From the NCBI GenBank assembly GCA_965238275.1, contig OZ250186.1:1728001-1792000 (forward strand): 64,000 nt of DNA, in the 5' to 3' direction. Origin of the DNA: Nitrosopumilus sp. (GTDB lineage: Archaea; Thermoproteota; Nitrososphaeria; Nitrososphaerales; Nitrosopumilaceae). Both the position numbers and the translations under genes were made by a program. A model generated the notes under the pieces. That model saw nothing but the letters and a program-made list of their open reading frames with translations. It searched no databases and was not told the DNA's origin. Positions 50,867 through 54,213 of this stretch are shown one piece after another (positions within the stretch are counted from its first letter, which is position 1; every line of letters begins with the position of its first letter).

Positions 50867-51359
50867 TTCGTGCCTGAACCGCATCACTCCTTACCCACAT
50901 CGAGTCCAAAACCCCCTACCCTTTGGAGTGAAACATGCCATTACACACAGGCACAGGGCAGGCACGCAGGGCCACAACATGCCAATCCGTGCCTAGGTGC
51001 TAAACCCCCCTGCACAGCCACCACACCTAGGCACGATCCCATATTTCCAAAAACGGCCGATTTGAGGGGGGGTTTAGCGTTCGTGCCTAGGGGTGCGATG
51101 CAACCCCCAAACCACCCCGATAGCTCACCAGAACATGCCCAATCTTTTATTTCCGTGCCTGAAAGCTAAACCCCCCAATAATGGGAGTATCCATGAGGCT
51201 ACAGGTGGTTCCAGGCACGCATCAGAATACCAGAATCAGTACAAGACAAGGCAGAGATGCCAATCAGACACGATGCGATATTCCATGTCCAGATTTCATC
51301 TTAGGAACCTTCAACTTTGAAGGCAGTAGGAAAACATTACATAGTGTCCGCGCATCAGA

Positions 51360-51809
51360 ATGGCAAATGCAAACAGGGTACTGCTGTCAGCCTTGGTGAT
51401 TGGAGGCGTTGCAGTATTGTTATTTTTTGTGATCAATAATGAAGAAAATACCATGCCAGAGCCACAGCCAGATGTGTCAAACCAGACCGCTGCCAGTATG
51501 CCTGGAGATGACGCAGACCCCATGCCAGAGCCACAGCCAGATGTGTCAAACCAGACCGCTGCCAGTATGCCGGGAAGTGTCACATACCCCATGCCAGAGC
51601 CACAGCCAGATGTGTCAAACCAGACCGCTGCCAGTATGCCGGGAAGTGTCACAGACCCCATGCCAGAGTCATCACGTGAGCATGGCATTCCAATAAATAA
51701 AATCACATGTCCCGATTCAAAAATACCTGTCTACTCCCCGGGCAACAGACCCGTCTGTGTATCTCCCCAGACGGTTCCAATGTTTGGATCTGCGGGTTGG
51801 GAATTACTA
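51360..51809 (+). pseudogene. exported protein, 5' part (interrupted by the TnpB element)
   Basis: Signal/TM, 23-aa repeats, C..P.CV.P.T....GW module; joins in frame to 53326-54213. Confidence 0.85.
51451..51668 (+). repeat. 69-bp in-frame tandem repeat (3 units + partial)
   Basis: Encodes MPEPQPDVSNQTAASMPG(x4)P. Confidence 0.9.
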
Positions 51810-53323
51810 TAGTGAAAAGCGAAAGTTCGTGCAATTTTTTGAGATCCTTTTTAAGAAAATAAATCCCAACTACAGGTATGATTGTCAGTAAAATCATCAA
51901 GATAACACAATCTCGGGAACTGTCACGCAAGATCGTGAAATGCTCCCGGGAAACAGACATCATTTACGACATGACAATCATGATGAAACTTGCACACTCA
52001 CGGATCACACAGTTTGATGTCAACAACCTGATAACAGGATGGCGCAGGGAATTCAACCTGACCAACAGCGTCCGCATGCATGAGGCCGCCTCAAAACAGG
52101 CTTTCCAGGCGGCAGTCAAATTCCGCAAGGCAAACCGGCTCAAGCACAACAAGCGCATCTGGCGCAAGAAGCAGATCAAGCTGGGGAAAAAGAAGACGTA
52201 CAAGCACAATCGGTGGACCGAGCCGTCCAGCCTGATGAGGCGCGGCAGGAAAACAACCAGGCTGCGCTCGCTGAATTCACGCGGAAAGCCAAAACTGCGA
52301 GACAGTGGAGCCGTGTTTCTGCCCGGACTCGGGGAAGCAAGGCCACGCACGAAGGCTCCGGAAGGCAGGCTCGTGTCATTCCAGATGATTGACACCACGG
52401 GCAAGGTCACGCGTAAGACCAAGGATGGTGATCGCGAATTCAAACTGCATTTGCAGATAGAAGTCCCAGACCCCGAACCCGCGACAGGCGGTGGTGGTGG
52501 CGGCGGATGCAAGGCAGGGCTAGATCTTGGAGTCAGGCACCTTGCGGCAGTCGCAGACGAGCATGGGAACGAAAAACTGCACAATGTCCCCGGAGGCTGC
52601 AAGAGGCATGACGGCGACAGGATTGATCAGCTGAAATCACTTAGATCAAGATGCCAGGCAGGCTCCAGAAGATGGAAAGAGATCGGCCGCAAGGTAACGC
52701 ATGAATTGAAAAAGATATCAAACAGGCAAAAACACAACGAGGCCGACATTGCCAGGCGGATAACAAAAGGACTGTCCGTATTGTTCTTGGAAGATCTGGA
52801 TTTGACCAAGATGAGGCGATCCTGCGGGGCGGCTTCAAAGACGGGGTTGAACCGCGAGATGGCCTATTCCAGAATGGGCGAGTTCAGGATCCAGCTTGAA
52901 TGGCAGATGAAAAAGAAAGGCGGAATTTCAAGACGCGTGGAACCCGCACATACAAGCCAGAGATGCGCTGCCTGCGGGGTAGTGGACAAGAAATCCAGGA
53001 ACGGCGAATCATTTGTCTGCACCTCATGCGGATGGTGCCACCATGCCGACAAGAACGCGGCAAAAAACATTTTGGATAATGACTGTCTCCATACGGAGGA
53101 GACTGGCGGCCAAGCCCACGGGAATCGTGGAGGCACCATTGCAGGTGTCGAGGTCGTCACAAGGCGCGAGGATCACGGATCGGATGGTTCTGGAATGAAC
53201 AATTCGACAGGTCGGCTTGGATCCGACAACGACGACAATATTGGAAGGTCTGACAGAGCGCCGGAAAGAGCATCAGGACATGCTACAGAGAGATCTGTTT
53301 GCACGAACTTTCGCTCGCCGCTA
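51810..53323 (+). mobile_element. non-autonomous TIR element carrying tnpB, TA target duplication
   Basis: Left TAGTGAAAAGCGAAAGTTCGTGCAA vs reverse complement of right TAGCGGCGAGCGAAAGTTCGTGCAA (21/25, inner 17 perfect); TA at 51808-09 and 53324-25. Confidence 0.9.
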
Positions 53324-53389
53324 TACCAAATGTATCCCCCGGGCAGGATTATTTACCGCCCCCAATGCACTGTGATAAAATATGGGTGA
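51878..53389 (+). CDS. tnpB: TnpB RNA-guided endonuclease
   Basis: RuvC-I GLDLG, RuvC-II LEDL, TSQRCAACG...FVCTSCG Zn finger, RuvC-III ADKNAAKNI; TTTTTAAG box upstream of the ATG. Confidence 0.92.
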   Translation: MIVSKIIKITQSRELSRKIVKCSRETDIIYDMTIMMKLAHSRITQFDVNNLITGWRREFNLTNSVRMHEAASKQAFQAAVKFRKANRLKHNKRIWRKKQIKLGKKKTYKHNRWTEPSSLMRRGRKTTRLRSLNSRGKPKLRDSGAVFLPGLGEARPRTKAPEGRLVSFQMIDTTGKVTRKTKDGDREFKLHLQIEVPDPEPATGGGGGGGCKAGLDLGVRHLAAVADEHGNEKLHNVPGGCKRHDGDRIDQLKSLRSRCQAGSRRWKEIGRKVTHELKKISNRQKHNEADIARRITKGLSVLFLEDLDLTKMRRSCGAASKTGLNREMAYSRMGEFRIQLEWQMKKKGGISRRVEPAHTSQRCAACGVVDKKSRNGESFVCTSCGWCHHADKNAAKNILDNDCLHTEETGGQAHGNRGGTIAGVEVVTRREDHGSDGSGMNNSTGRLGSDNDDNIGRSDRAPERASGHATERSVCTNFRSPLYQMYPPGRIIYRPQCTVIKYG

Positions 53390-54213
53390 TGTCTCCAATC
53401 GGAGATCTGGGATGCGTGGAATGGTATACTGGTGTGGAGTTGGTATCTCAGAAATGGCTGGCCTTGGATCGTCATCCTGATGCTGAAAAGTATGGGCCCG
53501 AGATAGTTCGATATTTCACGCCCCATGCCGAAACCCAGCCAATTCTTAATCATACCGTGACGCTGTCTCTGTCAGAACTGCCAATAGTTGGACAGAATGT
53601 GACTGTCACTGCTACCGTGGAATCTGATGAGGCTGCCTCTGAAAGGAACTCGAGGGTAGAGTTTCTGTTTATGGGCGCATTGAACGTCACATCATCACAT
53701 CCCGATGTTAATCCCGGTTCCCATGATGAATATTATCCAGGTACCTACTTTTCTACGCCATCAATTGCCCTGACACCTGGCGGAACACACCAATTCAACA
53801 TGAATGTGGTGCCAACTGCAGAGGCTCTTGCCCTCATATCTGTTCGACTTCCATCATGGGGTTTTGCCGTAAACGATGATCGTATCTACCTCTCAATTGG
53901 AAGTCAAAAATCAGGCTACCAGTTGGACAAGGATTCACATGCACGGGACCCTGATGTCAACTATGTCTGGACTGAAAGGACAATCCCGCAGTGTGTCTAT
54001 TATCCTTGGGATGAAACCGGTCAGACAATACAGCAATATTATGCGGATTTGGGGATCGTCGTTCTGGAAACAAAGTATCCGTCTTATCCATTTGTCGTCT
54101 GTATGGCATGTGGTTGCTATGGTAACTCAGTTTTATTTTTAATACCTGAGTCAGATTATGATCAGGTGCCCAGTCTGGACGAATGGGTGAATCCCCAGTC
54201 CGATCATCAGTAA
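53326..54213 (+). pseudogene. exported protein, 3' part
   Basis: Second C...G.CV...T...L...W module, Ig-like beta region, VCMACGC; extreme end derived from an IS5 remnant. Confidence 0.8.

Follow-up and report, generated by a model that had tools for sequence, protein, structure and literature searches.

The TnpB nucleases are only rarely linked to DDE transposases, and the benefit that such a nuclease would bring to a cut-and-paste element has been questioned in those sections of a 2026 review of OMEGA systems that deal with this association (PMC13565253). The association was set out by Altae-Tran et al. (2023, PNAS; PMC10691335), whose main text describes a DDE-6 branch of TnpBs that occur with IS630-family DDE transposases and a separate helix-turn-helix (HTH) protein between symmetrical ends. 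It reports inverted repeats for all six DDE-associated TnpB branches, with the 3′ end of tnpB less than 250 bp from the transposon end, and solo TnpBs whose ends are nearly identical to those of transposase-bearing elements, for which mobilization in trans and a possible link to the Fanzors were proposed. The corresponding sections of the review repeat the account of IS630-linked TnpB, discuss duplications beside the target-adjacent motif (TAM) of Fanzors, and place the 3′ duplication of a Fanzor in its RNA scaffold and the 5′ duplication in its TAM. IS200/IS605 elements are described there as lacking terminal inverted repeats (TIRs) and target duplication, possessing subterminal hairpins, and needing the Y1 transposase TnpA. 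Here we analyze a tnpB element in a 64,000-nucleotide stretch of the genome of an ammonia-oxidizing-type archaeon, Nitrosopumilus sp. (contig OZ250186.1, positions 1,728,001 to 1,792,000; hereafter the window, to whose own numbering positions refer). The element spans 51808-53325 (1518 bp), contains tnpB as its sole gene, and has TA at either outer side. We estimate a probability of about three in four that it is a non-autonomous element of the IS630 superfamily, with TnpB and its omegaRNA as cargo, that is moved by the transposase of a resident IS630 family termed D-type below, carries its RNA guide across the right end, and practices TAM-based homing.

The genome that contains the window (G000) is a single contig of 2,216,668 bp that is 99.92% complete, and its small-subunit ribosomal RNA scores best with the archaeal Rfam model (1469.9 bits, full length), indicating an archaeal host. 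The longest among 30 inverted pairs in positions 51600-53600 has arms at 51808-51834 and 53299-53325, each 27 nt long and 85% complementary to the other. Each arm of this imperfect TIR ends in TATA, and the element proper reads TAG...CTA. Without the outer TA, the repeat is a 25-nt pair with 21/25 positions matching, in which the inner 17 nt are identical and the outer 8 nt differ; the inner 17-mer is present at only these two places in the window, with 0.02 occurrences expected by shuffling. An earlier reading of this DNA made without database searches (the sequence-only reading) had described 25-bp TIRs of this composition, TA on both outer sides, and tnpB as the only gene between them. All three features hold: the repeat is the longest inverted pair of the region and its 17-mer is otherwise absent from the window, TA is found on both sides of the window element and of all copies with intact ends, and the sole long open reading frame (ORF) between the TIRs, 51878-53389, is tnpB. 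The combination of TIR, TA and tnpB is confirmed as real. It had also been argued that the fusion of two flanking ORFs fixes the boundaries. Removal of the element and one TA does join the ORFs 51360-51809 (150 codons) and 53326-54213 (295 codons) in frame to give 445 codons, but a frame match alone would occur by chance in one case out of three. The boundaries are instead fixed independently by the copies described next, because about 22 of them with different flanks share the same ends.

The host genome contains 35 DNA matches to the element, corresponding to about 22 full-length copies and fragments, so that the further TA-flanked copies expected by the sequence-only reading do exist. Every copy with intact ends starts with TATAG and finishes with CTATA, and the flanks are unrelated. 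The copies form subfamilies at ~97-99%, 89-94% and 80-82% identity. A full-length tnpB frame of 479-532 codons, open to or beyond the last base of the element, is retained in 14/21 copies, and the frame is broken or interrupted in 7/21. A genome search with the inner 17-mer, allowing up to 2 mismatches, gave 41 matches (1 match for a reversed-pattern control), all of them located in tnpB elements, in fragments of these or in one solo left end; no transposase is therefore found between identical ends. One copy (G000:C1:883619-891004) is situated within a ~130-bp repeat, two uninterrupted paralogues of which have exactly 2 nt between the flanks, which is the spacing required by the frame argument for the interrupted host gene. 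In two sequencing runs of unrecorded type, loose contig ends whose flanks differ accumulate at 51804-51807 and 53325-53326, in agreement with the boundaries. Element-like contigs were also present in two metatranscriptome runs from one study, which attests presence in an RNA library only; with 20-24 differences, they derive from other copies or strains.

Some copies have acquired additional DNA. A ~90-bp miniature inverted-repeat transposable element (MITE) with inverted ends GAGACATAATCCGTAAT... is inserted in three tnpB copies at two positions (G000:C1:615466-615558, 643114-643206 and 1821626-1821717), and the copy at 883619-891004 is split by a 5.9-kb insertion holding an IS630 copy of family A (see below). 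In the divergent copy 951041-952545, the right end is directly followed by a 29-nt piece of the copy's own 3′ region (query 1437-1465, at G000:C1:951012-951040), which looks like a rearrangement or nested remnant. In the copies G000:C1:828589-830106 and 2146754-2148268, the left end is missing its first 16 nt, and the upstream sequence is identical in both (376 nt, 100%), which points to a segmental duplication or to a common second element abutting both.

The host genome encodes no protein matching the Y1_Tnp or Resolvase profiles, although control genomes were positive for both (Y1_Tnp in 6/14 genomes). It has 34 matches to DDE_3, the IS630-type transposase domain, 32 of them above cut-off. 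The D-type elements among these are 1005-1362 bp long with TATA at start and end, and encode intact transposase ORFs of 337 and 353 amino acids that score 172-175 bits with the NCBIfam transpos_IS630 profile (cut-off 100) and contain Pfam DDE_3 and HTH domains. D-type transposases are encoded at L100:180-1190 and L101:378-1439, minus strand. When anchored to the tnpB element ends, 7/8 D-type ends match at 17-21/27 positions and the eighth at 13-15, as against 8-16/27 for the ends of IS630 families A, B and C. With the right end of the copy at G000:C1:1872987-1874348, identity is complete over the inner 12 nt, AAAGTTCGTGCA. Furthermore, the right repeat is read in the same register by both kinds of ORF, as ...LCKDF followed by the stop TGA in the transposase (L100, ~1170-1204) and as ...VCTNFRSPL in tnpB. 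This shared register is compatible with an origin of the tnpB element from a D-type IS630 element whose interior was replaced. The IS630 load of the host genome is considerable, with at least four families possessing different ends (A ~1435, B ~1260, C ~1450 and D ~1105 bp) in 2.2 Mb.

Only one genome among 30 relatives searched contains DNA related to the element, at 65-70% identity. This genome, G017, belongs to the same genus, is also one contig, and encodes two further subfamilies of tnpB-only elements with the same layout, type 1 (6 copies of ~1485 bp) and type 2 (8 copies of ~1489 bp). It has 0 Y1 and 16 DDE_3 matches, and possesses D-type IS630 elements with ORFs of 338-351 amino acids, together with a 154-bp MITE bounded by these D-type ends. 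At 18/19 positions, its type-1 tnpB elements agree in their left end with its own D-type element. The sequence-only reading had expected an IS630-family transposase between the very same TIRs. None has the exact 17-mer, but related ends do enclose IS630 transposases in both genomes, and the possibility it had raised that no transposase-bearing element shares these ends did not materialize. Its proposal of a non-autonomous tnpB-only element moved in trans by a DDE transposase is supported as the most likely account, given the related ends and the absence of another TnpA type.

A further copy was found in a metagenome-assembled genome (MAG) of Nitrosopumilus sp. (L099), with 73% protein identity, a broken frame, and the same ends and flank; it was the one locus recovered from the genome_contigs collection, and viral_contigs and metagenome_contigs yielded no relatives. 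Across the four lineages (the host genome, G017 types 1 and 2, and the MAG), at ~45-82% protein identity to the window TnpB, the distance from the gene to each TIR is conserved, and none of the 34 bounded elements examined has a gene other than tnpB. No tnpB with a DDE gene in cis was found among the relatives searched. More widely, a profile of this tnpB clade matches 48/401 sampled genomes of the archaeal family at E ≤1e-10, and Y1_Tnp is above cut-off in 18/401 and at E ≤0.001 in 24 (tallies that include the unpublished genomes G233 and G255 for tnpB, and G233 and G283 for Y1). None of the 18 genomes with strong tnpB-clade matches (best E ≤1e-20) has a Y1 match, compared with 9 of the 30 genomes with weak tnpB-clade matches only, where some Y1 genes adjoin tnpB. 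Both IS605-type and DDE-type tnpB elements therefore occur in this archaeal family. Examples of Y1 TnpA genes adjoining distant tnpB genes are found at G239:C290, G114:C29 and G396:C103.

The protein encoded by ORF 51878-53389 matches Pfam OrfB_IS605 (8e-12) and Cas12f1-like_TNB (1.2e-17), and scores 125.9 bits with NCBIfam guided_TnpB (NF040570; cut-off 100). Its score with the IS607_TnpB profile is 91 bits against a cut-off of 350, and that with IS200_TnpB is likewise below cut-off. The three RuvC acidic residues and Zn finger that the sequence-only reading had recognized correspond to D216, E305 and D391 and to C363, C366, C381 and C384. Across 8 aligned homologues these residues do not vary, and they line up with the catalytic motifs known from solved TnpB structures, in keeping with a split RuvC whose Zn-ribbon is placed between RuvC-II and RuvC-III. 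A search of PDB chains, which matched solved TnpB and Cas12f proteins, returned ISDra2 TnpB at 5e-9 and mimivirus L79 at 3e-8, and the other 22 matches at E ≤0.01 are named as TnpB, transposase or Cas12-type chains. Judged by these sequence matches, the window protein is an ordinary TnpB with no special closeness to Fanzors. The ORF has no stop codon of its own; the TA and first flank base form a stop in about half of the copies, and otherwise the stop lies further on.

The 3′ part of the element encodes a structured RNA, according to an alignment of the last 262 nt of 19 elements (9 from the host genome and, from G017, 5 of type 1 and 5 of type 2; a host-genome copy with a 44-nt insertion was omitted). 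RNAalifold predicted 52 pairs in 10 helices, 21 of the pairs with compensatory change. Paired cells amount to 97.8%, compared with 34-48% when partners are slid by 1-3 columns, the 21 covarying pairs fall to 2-5 when slid, and the covariation score was reached by 0/500 shuffles. Because of invariant G-U pairs, the RNA can be placed on the tnpB strand. The structure begins at 53085, directly after the RuvC-III motif, and ends at 53316, its last helix joining GAGC at 53268-53271 with GCTC at 53313-53316 inside the right TIR, with A-U, U-G, G-U and C-G variants. Since this helix pairs into the repeat, the right TIR appears to have two roles, transposase site and 3′ portion of the omegaRNA scaffold. 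Rfam contains no family matching the RNA, the only hit being SECIS_1 at E 0.39 on the opposite strand. At the left end, folding as DNA yields -2.1 kcal/mol (z +0.9), and 172/200 shuffles fold at least as well, indicating that there is no stable hairpin. The left TIR is followed after only 43 nt by the ATG, and this, together with the RNA pairing into the right TIR, leaves no room for inner IS605-type ends. The sequence-only reading had allowed that such ends might lie inside the TIRs; with no left hairpin and an omegaRNA that extends into the right TIR, that possibility fails.

The flanks of the element are conserved on one side. A C directly precedes the left TATA in 34/34 elements (host genome, 19; G017, 6 and 8; MAG, 1) and at the solo left end; this count omits copies without a left end (642577, 828589, 2146754 and fragments). 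The mirror G follows the right TATA in 15/34 (Fisher p = 1e-7 against the left C), and D-type ends without tnpB have an outside C in 19/29 (Fisher p = 1.6e-4 against 34/34). At position -3, T is found in 16/19 host-genome tnpB copies but in 2/15 host-genome D-type ends (hand count), and A is found in 6/8 G017 type-2 copies. The uninterrupted paralogues contain the conserved C, which is therefore a feature of the target rather than of the element. From this pattern we infer a T-N-C TAM and a guide whose first bases are the duplicated TA.

The same one-sided pattern recurs in a sister genus (g30; genomes G130 and G095, loci L134-L157, e.g., L136 101-1572 and L134 101-2790) that encodes tnpB relatives matching the clade profile at E 1e-45 to 1e-54. 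There, elements of 1.42-1.57 kb with tnpB as sole gene have ends that begin GGGAATTATATAC, and in 16/22 of those examined an AT-rich stretch of 8 bp is exactly duplicated on the two sides. Longer g30 elements, of 2.7-2.8 kb, share the outer 13 nt of these ends; they code for a transposase of the IS1595 family (Pfam DDE_Tnp_IS1595 at 1e-40, with its Zn-ribbon) and for a methylase-HNH cargo, and likewise have 8-bp duplications. A G is found just 5′ of the left duplication in 17/22 g30 tnpB elements and the mirror C at the right in 3/22 (hand count). It is mainly because this asymmetry recurs with an unrelated transposase family that we favor the TAM reading. A tentative generalization, possible though short of probable, is that one TnpB clade in one archaeal family has been captured by two unrelated DDE families, IS630-type (the host genome, G017 and the MAG) and IS1595-type (g30). 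The subfamily-specific bases 5′ of the left duplication would then be the footprint of the TAM (predicted to end in G in g30), the guide would begin with the duplicated bases, and cleavage of empty sites by TnpB would decide which insertions persist, which we call TAM anchoring. If true, TAM anchoring would directly answer the question of what use a DDE transposon has for an RNA-guided nuclease. A literature search for TnpB with IS1595 revealed no such partnership by title or abstract, and neither this partnership nor a TAM outside the duplication was found in print, although supplements beyond the searches may cover them.

The proposed mechanism builds on what was observed: the layout of the element and its family of copies, transposase-bearing elements with related ends, no TnpA of another type, an RNA with covariation, and a flank conserved on one side. 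We infer from these the acting transposase, the guide position, the TAM and homing. Most likely, a resident D-type IS630 transposase would bind the related 25-27-nt inverted ends, excise the element, and insert it at a TA. Transcription of the final ~240 nt, on the strand of tnpB, would yield the omegaRNA, with a scaffold that includes the right inverted repeat and a guide that consists of the duplicated TA and the right flank. TnpB would then recognize its own site when unoccupied, as a T-N-C TAM followed by TA and the flank; the occupied site, which reads C-T-A before the TA, would be spared. Cutting of an empty or vacated allele would lead to recombinational copying of the element back into it. 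A cut-and-paste insertion would persist only if a TAM were situated immediately 5′ of its left TA, and in this model the invariant C would thus be explained.

Several observations weigh against this model of an IS630-type element with TAM-based homing. The uninterrupted paralogues, ~92% identical to the flanks, read AA and not TA at the 2-nt position, so that they confirm the spacing and not the duplicated letters, and a 2-bp TA duplication looks no different from a single terminal TA belonging to the element. The assembled contigs of 4 runs showed no joint across the element, i.e., no empty allele, and the 82-codon ORF tail that overlaps the RNA is open in 14/21 copies. The left flank is itself ambiguous. 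Classical IS630 prefers CTAG targets, and because tnpB-free D-type ends so often have an outer C, the D-type transposase itself prefers C-TA; part of the left-flank C signal is target preference and not TAM. Given that the outer 8 nt of the two TIRs differ, an asymmetric preference arising from their unlike outer halves is possible. That a CTAG-like target preference made one-sided in this manner explains the invariant C entirely, with no TAM, is nevertheless unlikely, though by no means negligible: the left C of the tnpB elements exceeds both that of the D-type ends and the mirror base at their own right end, position -3 differs by tnpB subfamily and is seldom T at host-genome D-type ends, and the one-sided pattern is also seen with the unrelated IS1595.

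The identity of the mobilizing enzyme has its own difficulties. The best match of a transposase-bearing end in the host genome is 21/27 and none is identical, which makes cross-recognition of the tnpB ends by the D-type transposase an assumption; in addition, the closest pair of copies is 98.9% identical and no two are identical, so that current activity is not implied. These points, like the broken or interrupted frames and the several copies with foreign insertions, could be expected of a fossil family that has lost its own transposase partner, is invisible to the D-type transposase, and is decaying. We consider such a history improbable, because two-thirds of the frames are full length, the catalytic residues are invariant, RNA pairing has been kept by compensatory changes, and element-like contigs are present (presence only) in the two metatranscriptome libraries. 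A very improbable explanation is that the element is an ordinary IS1341-type member of the IS200/IS605 group, moved as single-stranded DNA by a Y1 TnpA in trans, whose apparent TIRs are subterminal hairpin regions and whose left flank is the TnpA target and TAM. As in IS200/IS605, the base 5′ of the left end is indeed strictly fixed and orientation-specific, the order of tnpB and then omegaRNA at the right end is canonical, and Y1 genes, some paired with tnpB, do occur in other genomes of the family. However, Y1 is absent from two complete genomes with ~22 and at least 14 copies, the strong-tnpB genomes share none with the 24 Y1-positive genomes, and the element has TA on both sides, an empty-site spacing of 2 nt, no left hairpin, and true inverted repeats related to IS630 ends. 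Least probable of all, to the point of being hardly credible, is chance nesting, in which an IS605-type tnpB element landed in an IS630-derived MITE and the composite was then amplified. MITEs with D-type ends do exist, as in G017, and other MITEs are inserted in tnpB copies; against this, four divergent lineages keep tnpB at a constant distance from the TIRs, and neither the short left interval nor the RNA that reaches into the right TIR leaves space for ends within the repeats. The IS630-type reading remains the one that we prefer, and the coordinates of its features are listed in the table.

Table. Features of the tnpB element and its insertion site, in positions of the window
Feature	Position	Strand	Basis
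5′ half of interrupted host gene (150 codons)	51360..51809	+	ORF list; frame joins 53326-54213 after removal of element and one TA
TAC, candidate TAM (T-N-C) directly 5′ of left TA	51805..51807	+	Conservation of C at -1 and T at -3; TAM role predicted
Left TA, copy of target duplication	51808..51809	.	TATAG start in copies; 2-nt spacing in two uninterrupted paralogues
Left terminal inverted repeat	51810..51834	+	Inverted-pair search; related to resident IS630 D-type ends
TTTTTAAG, possible archaeal TATA box, ~26 nt before ATG	51848..51855	+	Read from sequence
tnpB, 482 codons up to element end; frame continues to stop 53387-53389	51878..53323	+	Pfam, NCBIfam and PDB matches; invariant residues
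Structured RNA (omegaRNA scaffold), 10 helices, overlapping 3′ tail of ORF	53085..53316	+	RNAalifold covariation
Right terminal inverted repeat, also apparent part of RNA scaffold	53299..53323	-	Inverted-pair search; helix 10
Right TA, copy of duplication; predicted guide bases 1-2	53324..53325	.	CTATA end in copies; guide role predicted
Flank, predicted guide part of omegaRNA	53326..53345	+	Analogy with TnpB omegaRNAs
3′ half of interrupted host gene (295 codons)	53326..54213	+	ORF list

The octamer TTTTTAAG is also kept in G017 and in the MAG copy, and a leaderless transcript may start from this possible archaeal TATA box. The interrupted host gene encodes a hydrophobic N-terminus that resembles a signal or transmembrane segment, followed by three tandem repeats of ~19 residues that are PMPEPQPDVSNQTAASMPG-like (window 51440-51660). 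Neither half matches Pfam, and no orthologue was detected among the 30 relatives searched, the right half having a single weak partial match there, in G017 (33% over 66 residues); as a consequence, no orthologous empty site can be read. Upstream of the gene, at 51000-51180 of the window, the motif CTAAACCCCCC is present three times, once as the inverted complement GGGGGGGTTTAG.

The family represents a compact natural test case, with a complete genome, about 22 copies, no competing TnpA, and candidate partner transposases with related ends. The one-sided flank signature predicts both the TAM and the start of the guide, and the omegaRNA appears to reuse the predicted transposase-binding site. 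The family illustrates unusually clearly how a nuclease and borrowed transposon ends fit together. It bears on the possible origin of Fanzor-type partnerships, even though its own protein is not especially close to Fanzors.

TnpB on IS630-type ends is a kind of element described in 2023, of which this is a well-resolved archaeal case. The novelty implied by the sequence-only reading cannot be upheld at that level, since IS630-linked TnpBs, solo TnpBs mobilized in trans and the Fanzor link are already in the main text of PMC10691335. That main text contains no instance of 'Nitroso', 'Thaumarch' or 'TSD', and in the main texts covered by the literature search no report was found of this archaeal lineage, of a covarying omegaRNA that pairs into a TIR, or of a TAM just outside the duplication for prokaryotic DDE-linked TnpBs, although supplements may cover these. 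As far as the published main text allows comparison, the element resembles DDE-6 and the solo TnpBs with DDE-type ends in its symmetrical IS630-family ends, in the proximity of the tnpB 3′ end to the right end, and in being a solo TnpB that is predicted to be mobilized in trans. It differs in gene layout from DDE-6, where tnpB is in cis with an IS630 DDE gene and an HTH gene; here, 0/34 elements hold another gene.

With the IS1341 group, the element shares a single tnpB, an omegaRNA that overlaps the 3′ end of the gene and reaches to the right end, a multicopy state, and the lack of its own transposase. Unlike IS1341 and IS200/IS605 elements generally, it has TIRs and TA on both sides, has no left hairpin, and resides in a genome without Y1. 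IS607 elements have a serine recombinase TnpA, for which the host genome has 0 Resolvase matches, and the IS607_TnpB score is far below cut-off. The resemblance to Fanzor1 of eukaryotic and giant-virus Tc1/mariner-type transposons, so far as the cited sections describe it, lies in a TnpB-family nuclease enclosed by the TIRs of a DDE transposon that duplicates TA and often lacks the transposase, and in a duplication beside the TAM. In contrast to Fanzor1, the host here is an archaeon, the protein is an ordinary TnpB core of 400 residues, and the conserved bases are outside the duplication. The sequence-only reading had envisaged a prokaryotic Fanzor-like partnership, which stands with regard to the IS630-type layout of TIR and TA; the PDB search does not place the protein especially close to Fanzors, and the kind was already published. 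Finally, the element has in common with IS630 MITEs its TIRs, TA on both sides, a bias toward C-TA that is also seen at the D-type ends, and predicted mobilization in trans by an IS630-family transposase. What distinguishes it from a MITE is a 1.45-kb nuclease gene together with a structured RNA, for which the right TIR appears to double as scaffold.

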